Shown piece by piece: positions 3,482 through 58,134 of a stretch of DNA of 64,000 bases. The position numbers and the translations under genes were made by a program. Positions within the stretch are counted from its first letter, which is position 1. Every line of letters starts with the position of its first letter. The stretch lies in assembly GCF_058153355.1 (NCBI RefSeq), contig NZ_CM177019.1. The stretch is one strand, 5' to 3'. A model generated the notes under the pieces. The model did not search any database. It was not told the origin of the DNA and was given only the letters and a program-made list of their open reading frames with translations.

Positions 3482-4384
3482 TTACTGCTTCAGTTTGGGA
3501 TCGAGCGCGTCACGCAGACCGTCACCCATCAGGTTAAATGCCAGCACCGTCAGCAGGATCGCCAGACCCGGGAAGGTCACGACCCACCAGGCGCTTTGCG
3601 CGAACTGCAACACGTCAGAGAGCATGGTGCCCCACTCCGGCGTTGGCGGCTGCGCTCCCATGCCAAGGAAGCCAAGGGCGGCCATATCGAGAATGGCGTT
3701 AGAGAAACCGAGCGACGCCTGAACAATCAGCGGCGCAAGGCAGTTCGGGAAGATGTTAATAAACATCTGGCGCATCGCCCCGGCACCCGCCACGCGAGAC
3801 GCGGTAACGTAATCGCGATTCACCTCCACCAGCACGGCGGCGCGGGTTAAGCGCACATAGTGTGGCAAGGCAACGAAGGTTAGCGCCAGCGCGGCGTTAC
3901 CAATCGACGGGCCGAAAATCGCCACCAGCACCAGTGCCAACAGCAGACTTGGCAGCGCCAGCATGATATCGACCACGCGCATGATGATGTTATCGACCAG
4001 ACCGCCAAAGTAACCAGCGATCAGGCCGAGAATAACGCCCATAATCAGCGATAACACAACTACCAGACAGCCAACCAGCAGCGACAAGCGCGCGCCGTAC
4101 ATCAGCCGCGACAGCACATCACGGCCTACGTCATCGGTGCCAAGCAAGTGCGCCATGCTGCCGCCTTCCTGCCAGGCTGGCGGGGCGAGCAGTGCATCGC
4201 GGAACTGTTCCGCCGGGTTATACGGCGCAATCCAGTTGGCAAAGATCGCGATAAACAACACGATGACGACGTAAACCAGCCCGACGACCGCGCCTTTGTT
4301 GCGTTTAAAATAGTGCCAGAACTCCTGTAACGGGGTCATCGGCACCGGTGCGCTAATCACTTTATTTTCAGTAACCTGTGACAT
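3482..4384 (-). CDS. dppC: dipeptide ABC transporter permease DppC
   Basis: 300 aa multi-TM permease; operon position between dppB and dppD. Confidence 0.95.
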
Positions 4385-7897: not shown

Positions 7898-9202
<1,305 letters not shown>

Positions 9203-9402
9203 CATGCCTGCAATCTGGGAAACCGGGGTAGAAAAAAACTTGCAGGCCATAACAGTATCTACGTTCAGATTTGGTCGGTGCCAGAGGATTACTCGCCACT
9301 GCGTGGCTCGCCCTGCGGGCCGTTGCTGACGCAACGTTCTCTCGCTTTGCTCGAGTCGAACCTCTCTGCCCCCGGAGGTTCTTATCCTCTTCAGGTCGCA
9401 GA

Positions 9403-26857: not shown

Positions 26858-27286
26858 GTGATAAAAATGTCAGATATACAAAAAAATGCCTCTCCGGGAA
26901 GGCCTAAAGGGTGCCTGAATTATCCTCCTGAATTCAAACAACGACTCATAGAAGCATCATTCCAGCCAGGTGTTTCAATTTCCAGACTGGCCCTGGACAA
27001 TGGTATTAATGCCAATCTGTTGTTCAAATGGCGTCAGAAATGGCGGCAGGGGAAGATAAAATTGCCATCATCAGAATCAGGCAGAGAATCTCAGTTAATT
27101 CCTGTCACTATTGATGCCCAACTCCCAACTGCTCCGGCTAATGAGCCACTGACCGCAAGACCGTCAGTAACACCGGAAATACACAGCATCTCCTGTGAGA
27201 TTACGTTCAGAAACGGCACCCTTCGGTTGAACGGGGCAGTGAATGAAAATCTGCTGTCCTTGCTTATACAGGAGCTGAGACGGTGA
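26858..27286 (+). CDS. IS66-family accessory protein TnpA (orfA)
   Basis: 142 aa; small HTH-like first ORF of the IS66 operon; 4-bp overlap with orfB. Confidence 0.8.
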   Translation: MIKMSDIQKNASPGRPKGCLNYPPEFKQRLIEASFQPGVSISRLALDNGINANLLFKWRQKWRQGKIKLPSSESGRESQLIPVTIDAQLPTAPANEPLTARPSVTPEIHSISCEITFRNGTLRLNGAVNENLLSLLIQELRR

Positions 27287-27630
27287 TATCTCTCCCTGCA
27301 GGTTCGCGTATCTGGCTGGTTGCAGGTATCACCGATATGCGAAATGGCTTTAACGGCCTGGCCTCAAAAGTTCAGAACGTCCTGAAGGATGACCCGTTCT
27401 CCGGGCATCTGTTCATCTTCCGCGGACGCCGGGGTGACCAGATAAAAGTGTTGTGGGCTGACAGTGACGGACTGTGCCTCTTCACCAGACGCCTGGAGCG
27501 GGGCCGCTTCGTCTGGCCGGTCACCCGTGACGGCAAGGTGCACCTTACTCCGGCCCAGTTATCCATGCTTCTTGAGGGCATCGACTGGAAACACCCGAAA
27601 CGAACGGAACGCGCTGGCATCCGCATATAA
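27283..27630 (+). CDS. IS66-family accessory protein TnpB (orfB)
   Basis: 115 aa, MISLPAGSRIWLVAGITDMRNGFNGLA..., typical IS66 Orf2. Confidence 0.85.
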   Translation: MISLPAGSRIWLVAGITDMRNGFNGLASKVQNVLKDDPFSGHLFIFRGRRGDQIKVLWADSDGLCLFTRRLERGRFVWPVTRDGKVHLTPAQLSMLLEGIDWKHPKRTERAGIRI

Positions 27631-27649
27631 CCCGTTGTAAAGTGAGGAT

Positions 27650-29221
27650 ATGGACACCTCACTTGCTCATGAGAATGCCCGCCTGCGGGCACTGTTGCAG
27701 ACGCAACAGGACACCATCCGCCAGATGGCGAAATACAACCGCCTGCTCTCACAGCGGGTGGCGGCTTATGCTTCCGAAATCAACCGGCTGAAGGCGCTGG
27801 TTGCAAAACTGCAGCGCATGCAGTTCGGTAAAAGCTCAGAAAAACTTCGTGCAAAAACCGAACGGCAGATACAGGAAGCACAGGAGCGAATCAGCGCTCT
27901 TCAGGAAGAAATGGCGGAAACGCTGGGTGAGCAATATGACCCGGTACTGCCATCTCCCCTGCGCCAGTCTTCAGCCCGTAAACCGTTACCTGCCTCACTT
28001 CCCCGTGAAACCCGGGTCATCCGTCCGGAAGAGGAATGCTGCCCGGCCTGTGGTGGCGAACTCAGTTCTCTGGGATGTGATGTGTCAGAGCAACTGGAGC
28101 TTATCAGCAGCGCCTTTAAGGTTATCGAAACACAACGTCCGAAACTGGCCTGTTGCCGGTGCGACCATATCGTGCAGGCTCCGGTGCCTTCAAAACCCAT
28201 TGCACGCAGTTATGCCGGAGCGGGGCTTCTGGCCCATGTTGTCGCTGGAAAATATGCAGACCATCTGCCGTTATACCGCCAGTCAGAAATATACCGTCGT
28301 CAGGGCGTGGAGCTGAGCCGTGCCACACTGGGGCGCTGGACAGGTGCTGTTGCTGAACTGCTGGAACCGCTGTATGACATCCTGCGCCAGTATGTGCTGA
28401 TGCCCGGTAAAGTCCATGCCGATGATATCCCCGTTCCGGTCCAGGAGCCGGGCAGCGGTAAAACAAGGACTGCCCGGCTGTGGGTCTACGTTCGTGATGA
28501 CCGTAACGCCGGTTCGGAAATGCCTCCGGCGGTCTGGTTCGCGTACAGCCCGGACCGGAAAGGTATCCATCCACAGAATCATCTGGCCGGTTACAGCGGA
28601 GTGCTTCAGGCCGATGCTTACGGTGGTTACCGGGCGTTGTACGAATCCGGCAGAATAACGGAAGCCGCATGTATGGCTCATGCCCGGAGAAAAATCCACG
28701 ATGTGCATGCAAGAGTGCCCACCGACATCACCACGGAAGCCCTGCAGCGTATCGGTGAACTGTATGCCATCGAGGCAGAGGTCCGGGGCTGTTCAGCAGA
28801 ACAGCGTCTGGCGGCAAGAAAAGCCAGAGCCGCGCCACTGATGCAGTCACTGTATGACTGGATACAGCAACAGATGAAAACACTGTCGCGTCACTCGGAC
28901 ACGGCAAAAGCGTTCGCATACCTGCTGAAACAGTGGGATGCACTGAACGTGTACTGCAGTAATGGCTGGGTGGAAATCGACAACAACATCGCAGAGAACG
29001 CCTTACGGGGAGTGGCCGTAGGCCGGAAAAACTGGCTCTTCGCGGGTTCTGACAGCGGTGGTGAACATGCTGCGGTGTTGTACTCGCTGATCGGCACATG
29101 CCGTCTGAACAATGTGGAGCCAGAAAAGTGGCTGCGTTACGTCATTGAACATATCCAGGACTGGCCGGCAAACCGGGTACGCGATCTGTTGCCCTGGAAA
29201 GTTGATCTGAGCTCTCAGTAA
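27650..29221 (+). CDS. IS66-family transposase (orfC)
   Basis: 523 aa; N-terminal coiled coil/leucine zipper, CxxC zinc motifs (CCPACGG, CCRCDH), DDE domain. Confidence 0.88.
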
Positions 29222-29821: not shown

Positions 29822-31276
29822 TTACGCCATTAATGGCAGAAGTTGCTGATAGAGGCGACGGAACGTTTCACGTCGTGGCTGATAAGTGGCATAACGCTGC
29901 GCATCTGGTAAATGCGACTGTTCTAACGGCAGTTGTGGCAACAACTCAATGAGCGATTTCTCTGGATTCGCCACAATCTGCGCCAGCCTTGCTGCGCCCA
30001 GTGCTGGCCCCACATCCCCCCCCGTGCGGTAATCGAGTTGCTGACCGCTGATATCCGCCAGCATCTGACGCCAGTACTCACTACGCGCCCCGCCACCAAT
30101 CAACGTAACACTTTGCGGTTTAATGCCGCAGGCATGCACGACATCCATGCCATCTGCCAGCGCATAACCCACGCCTTCCAGCACTGCTCGCGCCAGTTCA
30201 TTGGGGCCATGTTGATGAGTCAAACCAAAGAAAACCCCCTTCGCCTGGGGATTATTGTGTGGTGTACGCTCGCCGGAAAGATAAGGCAGAAACCAAACTG
30301 GCTCGGCACTTTCATCAGCCTGTTGAGCAGCCGCGATTAAAGCTGGGACATTGTTCAGGCCCGTTAATTTCGCGGCCCAATCCAGACACGACGCTGCACT
30401 CAGCATCACAGACATTAAATGCCAACGCTGCGGGAGCGCATGGCAAAAGCTGTGTACGGCGCTTTCTGGCTTGCTTAAGAACCCTTCGCTGACAGCAAAA
30501 TAGACCCCCGACGTCCCCAGCGATAACATTGCCTGATTAGCATCAACCATTCCTACACCAACCGCACCAGCTGCATTATCACCACCGCCTGCGACAACTG
30601 GCACTGCCGCCATACCCCACGCTTTCGCAACTTCAGGTAGCAAAGCACCAGTAATTTCGCTGCCTTCGTATAATGCGGGCATCTGGTCACGAGATAAGTG
30701 GCAAGCCTGCAGCATGACGTCACTCCAGTCACGCTTTGCGACATCCAGCCACATGGTGCCAGCTGCGTCAGACATATCGCTGGCAAACTCCCCCGTCATA
30801 CGCAGACGCAAGTAATCTTTCGGTAATAATACTTTGTCGATTTGACGGAATATCTCCGGCTCATGCCGCTGAACCCATAGCAATTTAGGCGCAGTAAATC
30901 CGGGCATCATCAGGTTACCGGTAATCACCCGTGATTGCGGAACTCGCGCTTCCAGCAAAGTGCACTCTTGCGCACAGCGCCCGTCGTTCCACAAAATGGC
31001 AGGGCGTAATACCCGTTGCTGGGCATCCAGTAAGGTTGCACCGTGCATCTGGCCGGCAATACCCAATGCTTTAACGTCCTGCAGAGAATGCTGATCGCCC
31101 AGAGCTTTCATTGCGCGATCAGTTGCCTGCCACCACTGTTCCGGGTCTTGTTCCGACCAGAGTGGATGCGGGCGCGAAACGGTCAGCTTTTCCGTTTGCG
31201 AAGCAACCACCTCACCCTGCTCGTTGAGCAAAATAACTTTTACGCCCGAGGTGCCAAGATCTATCCCGATATACAT
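29822..31276 (-). CDS. xylB: xylulokinase
   Basis: 484 aa FGGY-family kinase, MYIGIDLGTSGVKV... Confidence 0.95.
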   Translation of the reverse strand: MYIGIDLGTSGVKVILLNEQGEVVASQTEKLTVSRPHPLWSEQDPEQWWQATDRAMKALGDQHSLQDVKALGIAGQMHGATLLDAQQRVLRPAILWNDGRCAQECTLLEARVPQSRVITGNLMMPGFTAPKLLWVQRHEPEIFRQIDKVLLPKDYLRLRMTGEFASDMSDAAGTMWLDVAKRDWSDVMLQACHLSRDQMPALYEGSEITGALLPEVAKAWGMAAVPVVAGGGDNAAGAVGVGMVDANQAMLSLGTSGVYFAVSEGFLSKPESAVHSFCHALPQRWHLMSVMLSAASCLDWAAKLTGLNNVPALIAAAQQADESAEPVWFLPYLSGERTPHNNPQAKGVFFGLTHQHGPNELARAVLEGVGYALADGMDVVHACGIKPQSVTLIGGGARSEYWRQMLADISGQQLDYRTGGDVGPALGAARLAQIVANPEKSLIELLPQLPLEQSHLPDAQRYATYQPRRETFRRLYQQLLPLMA

Positions 31277-42780: not shown

Positions 42781-44029
<1,249 letters not shown>

Positions 44030-44059
44030 CATGCCTGCAATCTGGGAAACCGGGGTAGA

Positions 44060-44090
<31 letters not shown>

Positions 44091-45630: not shown

Positions 45631-45831
45631 TTTGTCGCGTCCTGATGGTAGCGCAAAGTGTGTCGTAGTTCACGATCTCGACAGATAATTTATAACCACT
45701 TGATTTTTAAGTTTTTTGAAATTCATCAATCAGATTGCTTTGTTAAAAAGCGATCGATATATTTGAAATCAGATTTCACATATTGAAATTTTAAGCCAAA
45801 AAAAGCGTTCAAAAAAATAAGGAAGCCAGGG

Positions 45832-47309: not shown

Positions 47310-47426
47310 TCGAATAATCGTCTACGCCAGAACGCCTGGGTAATGTTATTGCTCTAACTATATTAATAATTCAGGTTGCTGCACATGCAACTTGAATTAT
47401 GACAAACATAGCCTCAAGGAATAGCT

Positions 47427-47901
47427 ATGAAAAAAAATACTTGAAGCAATACTGGCGATTAATCTCGCCGTACTTTCCTGTATTGTGTTTATAAACATTA
47501 TTTTAAGATATGGTTTTCAGACAAGTATTTTATCTGTAGATGAATTGTCGCGTTATTTATTTGTCTGGTTAACCTTTATTGGCGCGATTGTGGCTTTTAT
47601 GGATAACGCCCACGTTCAGGTTACCTTTCTGGTGGAGAAACTCTCCCCCGCGTGGCAGCGACGAGTCGCTCTGGTTACCCACGCCTTAATATTATTTATT
47701 TGTGGCGCACTGGCCTGGGGCGCAACGCTAAAAACAATTCAGGACTGGAGCGATTATTCACCGATCCTCGGCTTGCCCATCGGCCTGATGTATGCCGCTT
47801 GTCTGCCCACCAGCCTCGTTATCGCATTCTTTGAGCTGCGCCTTTTATATCAACTCATCACGCGTAGCAATTCTCTAACGCCGCCACCGCAAGGAGCTTA
47901 A
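47427..47901 (+). pseudogene. yiaM: TRAP transporter small permease YiaM, apparent +1 frameshift in A-run at codon 2-4
   Basis: ATG 47427 followed by 8 A (47430-47437) leads to a stop at 47442-47444; with 7 A the frame reads [15 protein letters not shown]... continuous with ORF 47485-47901. Confidence 0.65.
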
Positions 47902-47903
47902 TC

Positions 47904-49181
47904 ATGGCTGTGCTGATTTTTCTGGGCTGCCTGTTGGGTGGCATTGCCATCGGTTTGCCTATTGCCTGGTCGCTACTGTTGTGCGGGGCGGCGCTTATGT
48001 TCTGGCTGGATATGTTTGATGTCCAGATCATGGCGCAAACGCTGGTAAACGGTGCTGACAGCTTCTCCCTGCTGGCGATTCCGTTCTTTGTACTGGCGGG
48101 TGAAATCATGAATGCGGGCGGCTTATCAAAACGCATTGTTGACCTGCCGATGAAACTGGTCGGGCATAAACCAGGCGGGTTGGGCTACGTAGGCGTGCTG
48201 GCGGCAATGATTATGGCGAGCCTTTCCGGTTCTGCTGTTGCGGATACCGCCGCCGTTGCCGCGCTACTGGTGCCGATGATGCGCAGCGCTAACTACCCGG
48301 TCAACCGTGCTGCGGGGCTGATTGCCTCTGGCGGGATTATCGCGCCAATTATTCCCCCTTCCATTCCGTTTATTATCTTCGGTGTTTCCAGCGGATTATC
48401 CATCAGTAAGTTGTTTATGGCGGGAATTGCCCCAGGCATTATGATGGGCGCAACGCTGATGCTCACATGGTGGTGGCAGGCCAGTCGTCTTAATTTACCC
48501 CGTCAGCAAAAAGCAACGAAACGAGAAATCTGGCACTCTTTTGTTTCCGGTATCTGGGCGCTATTTCTTCCGGTCATTATTATTGGCGGCTTTCGCTCCG
48601 GTCTGTTTACCCCTACCGAAGCCGGGGCCGTTGCTGCTTTCTATGCGTTATTTGTCGCCACGGTTATTTACCGTGAAATGACCTTCGCCACACTTTGGCA
48701 TGTACTTATTGGCGCGGCGAAAACCACCTCAGTGGTAATGTTTCTGGTAGCTTCGGCACAAGTTTCCGCCTGGCTAATTACCATTGCTGAACTGCCAATG
48801 ATGGTTTCTGATTTACTGCAACCGTTAGTGGAATCACCGCGTCTGCTGTTTATCGTTATTATGCTGGCGATTTTGATAGTCGGTATGGTAATGGATTTAA
48901 CGCCGACGGTGTTAATTCTTACCCCGGTATTAATGCCTTTAGTTAAAGAGGCAGGAATCGATCCGATTTACTTCGGAGTCATGTTTATCATCAACTGCTC
49001 AATCGGCTTAATTACACCGCCTATCGGTAATGTGCTTAACGTTATTTCAGGGGTGGCTAAACTCAAATTCGATGATGCAGTCAGAGGCGTTTTCCCTTAC
49101 GTCCTGGTTTTATATTCCTTATTAGCCTTATTTGTTTTTATTCCCGATCTCATCATCCTCCCGTTGAAATGGATTAATTAA
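47904..49181 (+). CDS. yiaN: TRAP transporter large permease (DctM-like)
   Basis: 425 aa multi-TM DctM family protein. Confidence 0.9.
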   Translation: MAVLIFLGCLLGGIAIGLPIAWSLLLCGAALMFWLDMFDVQIMAQTLVNGADSFSLLAIPFFVLAGEIMNAGGLSKRIVDLPMKLVGHKPGGLGYVGVLAAMIMASLSGSAVADTAAVAALLVPMMRSANYPVNRAAGLIASGGIIAPIIPPSIPFIIFGVSSGLSISKLFMAGIAPGIMMGATLMLTWWWQASRLNLPRQQKATKREIWHSFVSGIWALFLPVIIIGGFRSGLFTPTEAGAVAAFYALFVATVIYREMTFATLWHVLIGAAKTTSVVMFLVASAQVSAWLITIAELPMMVSDLLQPLVESPRLLFIVIMLAILIVGMVMDLTPTVLILTPVLMPLVKEAGIDPIYFGVMFIINCSIGLITPPIGNVLNVISGVAKLKFDDAVRGVFPYVLVLYSLLALFVFIPDLIILPLKWIN

Positions 49182-49193
49182 AAGGAAAATATA

Positions 49194-50180
49194 ATGAAAT
49201 TACGCTCTGTAACCTACGCATTATTCATTGCTGGCCTCGCTGCATTCAGTACGTCTTCGCTGGCGGCACAATCATTACGTTTCGGTTATGAAACCTCACA
49301 AACCGACTCACAACATATTGCAGCGAAAAAATTTAATGAATTATTACAGGAGAGAACCAAAGGCGAGCTGAAATTAAAACTGTTCCCGGACAGTACTCTC
49401 GGCAACGCACAAGCGATGATCAGCGGCGTGCGTGGCGGCACTATTGATATGGAGATGTCTGGCTCGAATAACTTTGCCGGATTATCACCTGTGATGAACC
49501 TGCTGGATGTTCCTTTCCTGTTCCGCGATACCGCCCACGCGCATAAAACACTCGACGGCAAAGTCGGCGATGAACTGAAGGCCTCCCTTGAAGGTAAGGG
49601 ACTGAAAGTACTGGCCTACTGGGAAAACGGCTGGCGCGATGTCACCAACTCACGCCAACCGGTTAAAACGCCTGGCGACCTGAAAGGGCTGAAAATCCGC
49701 ACCAACAACAGCCCGATGAATATCGCCGCATTTAAAGTATTTGGCGCTAACCCTATCCCGATGCCGTTTGCCGAAGTCTATACCGGACTGGAAACACGCA
49801 CTATCGACGCTCAGGAACATCCCATCAACGTCGTCTGGTCGGCAAAATTTTATGAAGTGCAGAAGTACCTATCTCTGACTCACCATGCCTATTCCCCGCT
49901 TCTGGTAGTGATCAACAAAGCGAAATTTGATGGCTTAAGCCCGGAGTTCCAGCAAGCGCTAATTTCATCTGCGCAAGAAGCGGGTAATTACCAGCGCAAA
50001 TTGGTCGCCGAAAATCAGCAAAAAATCATCGACGGCATGAAAGACGCTGGCGTGGAAGTCATCACCGAACTTGATCGCAAAGCCTTTAGCGACGTACTGG
50101 GTACTCAGGTCCGCGACATGTTTGTAAAAGATGTTCCGCAGGGCGATGAACTGCTGAAAGCCGTGGATGAGGTGCAATAA
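49194..50180 (+). CDS. yiaO: TRAP transporter periplasmic solute-binding protein (2,3-diketo-L-gulonate)
   Basis: 328 aa; signal peptide; DctP family. Confidence 0.9.
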   Translation: MKLRSVTYALFIAGLAAFSTSSLAAQSLRFGYETSQTDSQHIAAKKFNELLQERTKGELKLKLFPDSTLGNAQAMISGVRGGTIDMEMSGSNNFAGLSPVMNLLDVPFLFRDTAHAHKTLDGKVGDELKASLEGKGLKVLAYWENGWRDVTNSRQPVKTPGDLKGLKIRTNNSPMNIAAFKVFGANPIPMPFAEVYTGLETRTIDAQEHPINVVWSAKFYEVQKYLSLTHHAYSPLLVVINKAKFDGLSPEFQQALISSAQEAGNYQRKLVAENQQKIIDGMKDAGVEVITELDRKAFSDVLGTQVRDMFVKDVPQGDELLKAVDEVQ

Positions 50181-52339: not shown

Positions 52340-53192
52340 TCATCCGTTAGGGATTTATGAAAAAGCGCTGGCGAAAGATCTCTCCTGGCCGGAGCGGCTG
52401 GTGCTGGCAAAAAGCTGCGGTTTTGATTTTGTCGAAATGTCGGTGGATGAAACCGACGAGCGTCTGTCGCGCCTTGACTGGAGCGCCGCACAAAGGACTT
52501 CGCTGGTTGCCGCGATGATCGAAACGGGTGTTGGGATCCCGTCGATGTGCCTGTCCGCACATCGTCGTTTTCCCTTTGGTAGCCGTGACGACGCGGCACG
52601 CCAGCGAGCACGGGAGATCATGAGTAAAGCAATTCGTCTGGCGCGCGATCTCGGTATTCGCACCATTCAACTGGCGGGCTACGACGTCTATTACGAAGCC
52701 CATGACGAAGGCACGCAGCAACGTTTTGCCGAAGGGCTGGCGTGGGCGGTTGAACAGGCAGCCGCCGCGCAGGTGATGCTGGCGGTGGAGATTATGGATA
52801 CTGCGTTTATGAACTCCATCAGCAAATGGAAAAAATGGGACGAGATACTCGCTTCGCCGTGGTTCACCGTCTACCCGGACGTCGGCAACCTTAGCGCCTG
52901 GGGCAATGATGTTCCCGCTGAACTGAAACTGGGCATTGACCGTATCGCCGCCATCCACCTGAAAGATACCCAGCCAGTGACCGAGCATAGCCCCGGACAG
53001 TTCCGCGACGTGCCGTTTGGCGAAGGCTGCGTCGATTTCGTTGGTATCTTCAAAACGCTGCATGAACTGAACTATCGCGGATCATTTCTGATTGAGATGT
53101 GGACCGAAAAAGCCAAAGAGCCGGTGCTGGAGATTATTCAGGCGCGGCGCTGGATTGAAGCGCGTATGCAGGAGGCCGGATTTATATGTTAG
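52332..53192 (+). CDS. sgbU: L-ribulose-5-phosphate 3-epimerase
   Basis: ORF 52299-53192; start [12 protein letters not shown] at GTG 52332 gives 286 aa; xylose-isomerase-like TIM barrel. Confidence 0.88.
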
Positions 53193-53680
53193 AGCGATTG
53201 AAAGCCGACGTGCTGGCGGCGAATCTGGCGCTTTATCGTCGCTATGCAGAAATTGGCGGTATTGTGCATACCCACTCGCGCCACGCCACCATCTGGTCAC
53301 AGGCCGGGCTGGATCTCCCCGCCTGGGGCACCACGCACGCCGATTATTTCTATGGTGCCATCCCCTGCACGCGACAGATGACCGCAGAGGAGATTAACGG
53401 CGAATATGAATATCAGACCGGCGAAGTGATCATTGAAACTTTCGAAGAACGCGGCAGGAGTCCGGCACAAATCCCGGCGGTATTGGTGCATTCTCACGGT
53501 CCGTTCGCCTGGGGCAATAACGCCGCCGATGCGGTGCATAATGCCGTGGTACTCGAAGAGTGCGCCTATATGGGCCTGTTCTCGCGCCAGCTTGCGCCGC
53601 AGCTTCCTGCGATGCAAAACGAACTTCTGGATAAGCATTACCTGCGTAAGCATGGGGCCAATGCCTATTACGGGCAGTAA
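53186..53680 (+). CDS. sgbE: L-ribulose-5-phosphate 4-epimerase SgbE with 67-codon in-frame internal deletion
   Basis: 164 aa instead of about 231; N-terminus [16 protein letters not shown] joins directly to [17 protein letters not shown], omitting the conserved N-terminal class II aldolase segment. Confidence 0.75.
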
Positions 53681-56163: not shown

Positions 56164-58134
56164 ATGAACATTTCGGAAGTCGATCTGCATAAACTGACGG
56201 TCAGCGATCCGTTCCTCGGTCAGTACCAACAACTGGTCCGCGACGTGGTGATTCCTTATCAGTGGGATGCCTTGAACGATCGTATCCCAGAAGCGGAACC
56301 CAGCCATGCGATTGAAAACTTTCGCATTGCCGCAGGACTGCAAGACGGTGAATTTTACGGGATGGTGTTTCAGGACAGCGACGTCGCCAAATGGCTGGAA
56401 GCGGTAGCCTGGTCGCTGTGCCAGAAGCCGGATGCCGAACTGGAAAAAACTGCTGACGAGGTAATCGAACTGGTCGCTTCCGCCCAGTGCGAAGATGGCT
56501 ATCTCAATACTTACTTTACGGTAAAAGCGCCCGAAGAACGCTGGAGCAATCTGGCGGAGTGTCATGAACTTTACTGCGCCGGTCATCTGATTGAAGCCGG
56601 AGTCGCCTTCTTCCAGGCCACGGGCAAGCGGCGCTTGCTGGAAGTGGTTTGCCGTCTGGCCGATCATATCGACAGCGTATTTGGTCCAGGTGAAAGTAAG
56701 TTACACGGTTATCCTGGTCATCCGGAAATTGAACTGGCACTGATGCGCCTGTATGAAGTGACCGAAGAGCCGCGCTACCTGGCGCTGACGAACTATTTTG
56801 TCGAACAGCGTGGTGCGCAACCGCACTATTACGACTAGGAATATGAAAAGCGCGGGCAGACCTCGCACTGGCACACCTACGGCCCGGCGTGGATGGTGAA
56901 AGACAAAGCCTACAGCCAGGCACATTTGCCCATCGCACAGCAGCAAACCGCCATTGGTCACGCGGTACGTTTTGTCTACCTGATGACCGGCGTCGCGCAT
57001 CTCGCGCGTTTAAGTCACGATGAAAGCAAGCGTCAGGACTGCCTGCGGCTGTGGAACAATATGGCCCAGCGTCAGTTATATATTACCGGCGGCATTGGCT
57101 CACAAAGCAGCGGCGAAGCGTTCAGCAGCGATTACGATCTGCCGAATGACACGGTATACGCCGAAAGCTGTGCTTCCATCGGCCTGATGATGTTCGCCCG
57201 GCGAATGCTGGAAATGGAAGGCGACAGTCACTATGCCGATGTGATGGAGCGCGCACTGTACAACACCGTGCTCGGCGGCATGGCGCTGGATGGCAAACAT
57301 TTCTTCTATGTGAATCCGCTGGAAGTACATCCAAAATCGCTGAAATTCAACCATATCTACGATCACGTTAAGCCGATCCGCCAGCGTTGGTTTGGTTGCG
57401 CTTGTTGTCCGCCAAATATCGCCCGCGTGCTAACCTCGATTGGTCATTATCTCTACACGCCGCGTGAAGATGCGTTGTATATCAACATCTACGCAGGAAA
57501 CAGCATGGAAGTGCCGGTAGAAAATGGCACGCTGCGTCTGCGGGTTAGCGGAAACTATCCGTGGCAGGAACAGGTGACAATTGCGGTTGAATCGCCCCAG
57601 CCGGTGCGTCATACGCTGGCTTTACGTCTGCCGGACTGGTGCACACAGCCGCAGATTACATTGAATGGGGAAGAGGTCGAGCAGGATATTCGTAAAGGGT
57701 ATTTGCACATTACCCGCGAATGGCAGGAGGGCGACACGCTGAATCTGACTTTGCCAATGCCGGTACGTCGCGTTTACGGTAACCCGCTGGTGCGTCACGT
57801 CGCCGGAAAAGTGGCGATTCAGCGCGGCCCGCTGGTGTATTGCCTGGAACAGGCCGACAACGGCGAGTCACTGCATAACCTGTGGCTGCCCGCCGATGCG
57901 CCATTTACGACATTTGAAGGTAATGGATTGTTCCGCCATAAGATCTTAATCCAGGCACCGGGTTACCGGTATGAACAGAGCAATCCAGAGCAGCAACCGC
58001 TGTGGCATTACGACAGCGCGCCAGCCAAACGCCAGCCGCAAACTCTGACATTTATCCCGTGGTTTAGCTGGGCTAACCGGGGTGAAGGCGAAATGCGGAT
58101 CTGGGTGAATGAGGAAAACCAGTGCCATCCGTAG
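56164..58134 (+). pseudogene. GH127-like (DUF1680, beta-L-arabinofuranosidase family) glycoside hydrolase interrupted by in-frame TAG
   Basis: ORFs 56116-56838 and 56893-58134 are in the same frame, separated by TAG at 56836-56838; combined about 655 aa; RBS aaggag before ATG 56164. Confidence 0.7.

Follow-up and report, generated by a model that had tools for sequence, protein, structure and literature searches.

The closest described transporter is YiaMNO of E. coli K-12, a TRAP transporter for 2,3-diketo-L-gulonate (Plantinga 2004/2005 and Thomas 2006, as summarized in the cited part of PMC7660916). In the phase-variable loci of Neisseria, Haemophilus, and Campylobacter covered in the cited part of PMC5084427, a tract in the first codons differs in length among near-identical genomes. 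Transcriptional slippage at poly(A) can rescue genes that carry an A run at the frameshift and otherwise look functional, as in the cited parts of Baranov 2005 (PMC1088944) and, for Citrobacter rodentium tssM, of PMC4256274. Enterobacteria also have slipped-strand frameshift pseudogenes, with a one-base insertion in a run, an immediate stop, and an ORF that is otherwise intact, in dispensable catabolic operons with lesions nearby.

We analyzed yiaM in one stretch of 64,000 nucleotides (the window) from contig NZ_CM177019.1 of assembly GCF_058153355.1. The window has the same transporter genes in the same order as K-12. Both YiaN and YiaO are intact in it and share 99% identity with the proteins of an E. 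coli reference genome (MFDS1022581), and its YiaM, once repaired, is a full-length equivalog match. It differs from K-12 in that the Q subunit cannot be made from the native start and sgbE has a 63-codon deletion. The locus has the features listed above for slipped-strand pseudogenes and differs from them in that the site recurs unusually often (102 of ~3,815 genomes, in many backgrounds) and is masked in RefSeq by a non-canonical start. Like the rescued genes, it has an A run at the frameshift and looks functional otherwise, but the known cases in the cited parts of PMC1088944 and PMC4256274 have at least nine A's or a conserved frameshifted arrangement, whereas yiaM has eight in a derived, minority arrangement. 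For yiaM, the rescuing transcript would also have to be one A short, and slippage in E. coli rarely goes that way (PMC5574713). With the phase-variable loci it shares a first-codon tract and length polymorphism in near-identical genomes, but the yiaM tract is much shorter than those in the cited part of PMC5084427 and E. coli has intact mismatch repair. Our literature search found nothing relevant on a yiaM frameshift or pseudogene.

We consider it likely that the window carries a real A7 to A8 slippage insertion that leaves yiaM null or near null and YiaMNO dead, as one step in the decay of the region. The gene has an indel in a mononucleotide run relative to the ancestral allele, and this indel belongs to the organism's own DNA. 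We classify it as a putative homopolymer frameshift pseudogene, real, recurrent, and tolerated, that appears to have arisen by ordinary slipped-strand gene loss. Mildly new are the frequent recurrence of the site and the systematic RefSeq annotation of A8 and A9 as intact YiaM.

The yiaM start and its operon

The gene order is yiaJ / yiaK-yiaL-yiaM-yiaN-yiaO-lyxK-sgbH-sgbU-sgbE. The features at yiaM and its partners are:

47427..47429, plus strand: native yiaM start codon ATG, which with A7 opens MKKILEAIL...; this start is annotated in K-12, 7/2, and MFDS1022581
47427..47444, plus strand: five-codon ORF MKKNT with the stop TGA at 47442-47444, the present product of the native start by translation
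47430..47437, plus strand: A8 homopolymer, the apparently ancestral A7 plus one A, spanning yiaM codons 2-4
47431..47901, plus strand: YiaM body, residues 2-157 and the stop, with the DctQ domain, intact in the +1 frame
47904..49181, plus strand: yiaN (DctM large permease; NF011634), intact, with its ATG 2 nt past the yiaM stop and its own GGAG
49194..50180, plus strand: yiaO (DctP binding protein; TIGR00787), intact by profile match

Direct reading of the sequence gives ATG at 47427, AAAAAAAA (A8) at 47430-47437, and then TACTTGA. An earlier sequence-only reading of this DNA had described ATG plus A8 as giving MKKNT and a stop, which direct reading and translation confirm. Its second point, that A7 would restore the YiaM N-terminus, holds as well: with one A removed, the sequence encodes a full-length YiaM of 157 aa that matches the YiaM equivalog NF007374 (NCBIfam) over residues 1-157 at 323.7 bits (cut-off 260) and Pfam PF04290 (DctQ) at 104.9 bits, with the domain beginning at residue 17. 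Translation from 47431 is free of stops for 156 codons, ends in PPPQGA and the stop, and contains one private substitution, S86A. The gene thus has the DctQ domain, the full-length NF007374 match, and adjoining DctM and DctP partners in one operon that are expected of a YiaM equivalog. It lacks an uninterrupted ORF from a canonical start served by a Shine-Dalgarno (SD) motif, as the native ATG leads only to MKKNT and a stop.

The 64-kb window contains two A8 runs and one T8 run, against ~2.4 and 2.0 expected under a first-order Markov model. The A8 run as such is within chance; what is non-random is its position in codons 2-4 of an ancestrally A7 gene, together with its recurrence in the population.

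The upstream gene yiaL is unusually divergent, with 92.9% amino-acid identity against 99% for its neighbors, which suggests an imported or old allele. The yiaL-yiaM spacer has a 10-bp indel at 47314-47323 relative to MFDS1022581.

Translation starts and predicted effect of A8

The starts and signals near the A run are:

47366..47400, plus strand: hairpin in the yiaL-yiaM spacer with a 14-bp stem and a 7-nt loop, from a fold of 47340-47470
47399..47401, plus strand: upstream ATG that shares the frame of the YiaM body only at A9 (the 167-aa RefSeq form), with no visible SD
47416..47421, plus strand: SD-like AAGGAA, 5-6 nt before the native ATG, conserved in all aligned E. coli loci and in a divergent Escherichia (L056)
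47437..47439, plus strand: ATA codon, the RefSeq/PGAP start of the 154-aa 'YiaM' in A8 genomes, 15 nt past the SD-like AAGGAA
47485..47487, plus strand: GTG codon 20, the first canonical in-frame start, giving a 138-aa product that is called as a gene in Logan assemblies

The fold of 47340-47470 has an energy of -36.7 kcal/mol (z = -5.0; 0 of 200 shuffles are as stable), and the first two bases of the upstream ATG at 47399 lie inside the 3' arm of the hairpin. The hairpin may possibly act in mRNA processing, stability, or translational control. In a second stem of 6 bp, CAU at 47407-47409 pairs with the AUG of yiaM, so that the SD stays in the loop.

The ATA at 47437 shares the frame of the YiaM body, but AAGGAA, the one SD-like motif available to it, ends 15 nt upstream, in our judgment too far for efficient initiation. 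Before codon 20, the only in-frame candidates for a start are near-cognates. We saw no SD-like purine run upstream of the GTG at codon 20, and its product lacks most of the first hydrophobic N-terminal segment.

From these features we infer a chain that runs from the A run to the transporter. Slipped-strand mispairing during replication of the run in codons 2-4 would have turned A7 into A8. Ribosomes that start at the native, SD-served ATG would halt after five codons (MKKNT), and the YiaM body in the +1 frame would be left with no usable start (the ATA too far from the SD, the GTG with no visible SD), so that YiaM protein would be lost. The resulting ~460 nt of untranslated mRNA may lower expression of yiaN-sgbE by polarity. 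TRAP transporters require the Q (small) subunit, so YiaMNO uptake of 2,3-diketo-L-gulonate would be lost with A8, and YiaMNO is probably inactive in A8 strains.

It is unlikely that A8 is instead a leaky allele, a hypomorph kept by selection, in which some functional YiaM comes from (re-)initiation at AUA 47437, +1 ribosomal slippage by tRNA-Lys, or RNA-polymerase slippage. An in-frame AUA stands directly after the run, and the terminating ribosome comes within 5 nt of it. This AUA is judged too distant from AAGGAA, though AUA and other near-cognate codons do initiate at 0.02-3% of AUG in E. coli (10.1101/063800), a level that applies even at good placement. Runs of eight A's are productive in some systems (PMC1088944), and slippage of E. 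coli RNA polymerase at A/T runs rises with length up to 9 nt (PMC5574713). The same work finds insertions and almost never deletions, so A8 would give mainly A9 mRNA, which is in frame only with ATG 47399, the start in the hairpin arm with no visible SD. The A8 tract is slippery, but the frame is restored only if one A is dropped from the RNA or the ribosome shifts by +1, and we saw no stimulatory element at the yiaM start. Programmed recoding would predict a conserved frameshifted arrangement; here only a derived minority of genomes has that arrangement, most have the apparently ancestral A7, and the run is missing from Pseudocitrobacter. Together with the rare direction of the slippage required, this speaks against a programmed recoding site. 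Most A8 genomes keep the downstream ORF intact (27 of 29 B1-type A8 genomes are annotated as having yiaM), which is compatible with residual function but may mean that the alleles are simply too young for more decay. Against a maintained hypomorph, the operon gathers secondary lesions (below).

Allele frequencies, ancestral state, and recurrence

We counted exact 64-66-mers across the run in 5,426 complete RefSeq E. coli genomes, with T and C variants at base 47442:

A7/T: 2,251 genomes
A7/C: 1,460 genomes
A8/T: 29 genomes
A8/C: 73 genomes
A9/T: 2 genomes

These make ~3,815 classified genomes out of roughly 3,800-3,840 with the region: 3,711 with A7, 102 (2.7%) with A8, and 2 with A9. The start region of yiaM is unmatched in ~1,600 of the 5,426 genomes, which fits a dispensable function. 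The sequence-only reading missed that A8 is a common polymorphism, found in 102 complete genomes and annotated by RefSeq as an intact gene. In ATCC 8739, a C replaces the T at 47442 and abolishes the TGA; this change is not compensatory, as K-12, with A7, also has C there.

Among metagenome contigs, a pattern scan found 47 matches: 44 with A7, one with A8, one error-ridden A6, and one with another +1 insertion. The last, on a human-gut contig (L040, 313-352), has A7 followed by TT (ATGAAAAAAATTACTTGA) with an equivalent early stop; coverage is low, and this insertion may be an error. In the protein collection, the gene-call forms that arise only from A8, of 154 aa (ATA) and 138 aa (GTG), each occur on at least 1,000 contigs, and the A9 form (167 aa, from the upstream ATG) on 208 contigs. 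An exact look-up in this collection, the index of which is incomplete, did not recover the 154-aa and 138-aa products specific to the lineage of the window.

A divergent Escherichia lineage (L056) has A7 (MKKILEA), and Pseudocitrobacter has ATG AAG AGA GTT CTC (MKRVLEG) at the same place, with no run. The A7 of the former and the same start without a run in the latter indicate that ATG 47427 with A7 is ancestral and A8 derived, an assignment that rests on the two close outgroups in our scan of species-representative genomes and on the majority state.

At least three deep haplotypes carry A8: that of the window, a K-12-like one, and a common B1-type one (O26/O111-like). The nearest A7 relatives of the window haplotype (MFDS1022581, L126, and L130) are 98-98.7% identical to it. 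The K-12-like haplotype is represented by ATCC 8739 (A8), which is 4 SNPs from K-12 in 3 kb. On the B1-type haplotype, an otherwise identical 3.1 kb carries A7 (at least 37 genomes), A8 (13 identical genomes and ~8 more with one SNP), or A9 (2 genomes). Over 20,657 shared sites in the 43-kb flanks, seven B1-type A8 genomes fall into five groups that are 108-254 SNPs apart, and every group has some A7 genome nearer to it than any other A8 group. One pair, SJ2D (A8) and E2865 (A7), has 0 SNPs over 20.6 kb. Haplotypes and flanks together rule out a single A8 clade. The allele could also be moved by recombination, but repeated slippage is the simpler reading of the spread. Over 3 kb, the A9 genomes match A8 genomes exactly, which suggests the order A7 to A8 to A9. 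Each A8 lineage has only 0-1 private substitutions, too few for dN/dS. The sequence-only reading had proposed a slippage-type inactivation of the TRAP small permease. Its slippage part is borne out by an insertion in a mononucleotide run, A7 as the apparent ancestor, and the recurrence; its inactivation part we would still word as a prediction.

In malS, 6 kb from yiaM, another A7 run shows no A8 allele in any of 4,087 genomes, compared with 102 for yiaM. Tracts of equal length are expected to mutate at similar rates, so we attribute this contrast to selection, with frameshifts purged in malS and tolerated in yiaM. The yiaM run appears to be a mutational hot spot, and selection on the operon is weak, so that A8 arises repeatedly and persists. 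The site offers a clear case in nature of a hot spot that weak selection makes visible.

Among 13 long homopolymers in the 43-kb region, four vary among 15 genomes, and the only coding ones of these are yiaM and the C8 run of xylB. The xylB C8/G8 run (window 30016-30023, minus strand) is intact in the window; F8704-2, E110019, and W2-5 have only 7 bases in it, and these are the three genomes with xylB annotated as frameshifted. It looks like a second recurrent homopolymer hot spot of the region. The divergent yiaJ-yiaK promoter region has two A7 runs, at 45798-45804 and 45811-45817. The first is A6 in MFDS1022581 and L126; a run just upstream of yiaK (L140 position 19932, probably 45811-45817) is A8 in F8704-2 and ST2350. 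These run-length polymorphisms could affect expression of the operon.

The same data bear on an adaptive ON/OFF contingency tract, in which A7 is ON, A8 is OFF, and A9 is ON again via the upstream ATG, so that lineages toggle the transporter. A simple repeat at the extreme 5' end of yiaM is polymorphic in length among close relatives, with three lengths on one otherwise identical 3.1-kb haplotype and an A7/A8 pair (SJ2D and E2865) at 0 SNPs. The A8 allele is polyphyletic, the malS control makes the pattern locus-specific, and A9, identical to A8 over 3 kb, opens a 167-aa ORF. The tract fits only these descriptive criteria of a contingency locus. Seven to nine A's are short for a bacterial contingency tract, and to our knowledge E. 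coli does not use such tracts. No reversion from A8 to A7 was demonstrated. The A9 'ON' state depends on the ATG buried in the hairpin, with no visible SD, and both A9 genomes are otherwise damaged (xylB is frameshifted in both, and E110019 has a stop in sgbE). As relaxed selection and ordinary slippage explain all the data, we find an adaptive switch very unlikely. A broader claim, that the tract is a low-frequency switch (A7 on, A8 off, A9 partly on) or that A8 is kept as a leaky hypomorph (through AUA or slippage), we rate as quite unlikely. If either were true, lineages would tune or toggle uptake of an ascorbate breakdown product, which is not plain decay.

Second lesions in the operon

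Operon lesions in addition to the yiaM tract were found in the following genomes:

2014C-3061 and 13E0780: lyxK nonsense
JNE23-001: lyxK frameshift
16F5M1D1: yiaO truncated
E110019: sgbE stop
2013C-3342: a further 98-bp loss in yiaM
STEC388: IS1 in yiaM
Window: sgbE (L-ribulose-5-P 4-epimerase) at 53186..53680, plus strand, with a 189-bp in-frame deletion of 63 codons between 11-bp direct repeats ATCTGGCGCTT, junction ~53223-53233

Among the A7 genomes inspected, only MFDS1022581 has an operon lesion (a stop in yiaO). Second operon lesions thus occur in 5 of 9 A8/A9 lineages and 1 of 9 A7 genomes, a difference that is not significant (Fisher p = 0.13). The excess is suggestive only; it would be consistent with a real loss of function.

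Assemblies of the same lineage

The nearest complete RefSeq E. coli genome to the yia region is no closer than 98.5% identity, so the source of the window cannot be checked directly in that set. We traced this rare E. coli lineage via private features: an exact look-up of the SgbE-deletion protein and of the window YiaL led to four assemblies, two NCBI drafts and two Logan SRA assemblies, all of which carry A8:

GCA_015332025.1: 19.6 kb aligned to the window, 4 SNPs, 0 gaps
GCA_043012465.1: 11.2 kb aligned, 2 SNPs, 0 gaps
Logan SRR31441161: 14.1 kb, identical
Logan SRR8656992: 3 SNPs, 0 gaps

Their alignments to the window cover 11-19.6 kb without a gap, at 99.98-100% identity, and the 0-4 SNPs between them and the window indicate at least three distinct isolates. 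Over ~38 kb, the window has only seven indels relative to a reference that is 2% divergent, which indicates that its assembly is not full of homopolymer errors. The change from A7 to A8 is genuine, heritable, and in the DNA of the organism.

A homopolymer sequencing or assembly error over a true A7 genome with an intact yiaM is scarcely conceivable: A8 runs are classic error sites and one low-coverage metagenome contig (L025) has run lengths that are plainly wrong, but the A8 is common to four independent, gap-free assemblies from different samples, which also share the other private lesions of the window (such as the 189-bp deletion, impossible as a base-calling error), the A8-derived protein forms come mostly from drafts, and the malS zero argues against assembly artefact as the source of A8 calls. 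The sequence-only reading had kept such an error as its alternative, which the four A8 assemblies refute, and had named A7-supporting reads as the finding that would undo its frameshift; all four read-derived assemblies have A8. Some A8 calls in complete genomes made from long reads only could be assembly errors.

Annotation of A8 and A9 alleles

On A8, RefSeq/PGAP annotates an intact 154-aa YiaM from the ATA (WP_032148054.1 and WP_042185990.1; L002 1558-2022 and L004 1532-1996), and 154-aa gene calls are also present in L123 and L129. On A9, it annotates a 167-aa YiaM from the upstream ATG (WP_000129599.1; L005 1494-1997). None of the RefSeq A8 or A9 YiaM entries is flagged as a pseudogene, and these intact-protein labels are probably over-generous. 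Thousands of public E. coli assemblies have A8 or A9 labelled by RefSeq as intact YiaM (ATA or upstream ATG start), so metabolic reconstructions and pan-genome presence/absence tables would overstate YiaMNO. In the window, we suggest that yiaM be called a frameshift pseudogene and the yiaK-sgbE pathway be scored as broken. The A8 allele is also a convenient test case for leaky expression at a run of eight A's.

Other lesions and mobile elements

Two more genes in the window are damaged:

56836-56838: TAG at codon 225 of a GH127 gene (656 aa, 56164-58134)
~63663: -1 frameshift in aldB (TTT to TT), which places residues 163-274 and 270-512 in different frames

With yiaM and sgbE, these make four inactivating lesions within 17 kb of the window. 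The sgbE deletion junction is absent from all 5,426 complete E. coli genomes and present in the other assemblies of the lineage. The aldB frameshift is in no complete E. coli genome; GCA_015332025.1 spans its site without a gap and shares both the aldB and sgbE lesions. The Logan assemblies split the GH127 gene into calls of 224 aa and 413 aa, and the NCBI draft has no gene call at this place.

The window also contains these mobile elements:

7969-9262 and ~42800-44090: two copies of IS621 (IS110 family), with transposase ORFs at 8173-9153 and 43000-43980
26858-29221: IS66-family element (tnpA, tnpB, and tnpC, with a DDE_Tnp_IS66 domain) between yiaA and yiaB

The density of lesions and IS elements prompted us to consider a Shigella origin, which is unsupported; the xyl genes are intact and proteins of the lineage are labelled E. 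coli. The IS66-family insertion between yiaA and yiaB is not present in the reference genomes inspected. The second IS621 lies between avtA and ysaA, and MFDS1022581, 2014C-3061, and 13E0780 have it at the same site. In 2014C-3061 (L131 1-17000), the sequence to the left of this IS621 is rhaBADM-frv-fdo and not avtA-malS-xyl, which points to a large IS621-bounded rearrangement or inversion beside the yia operon.
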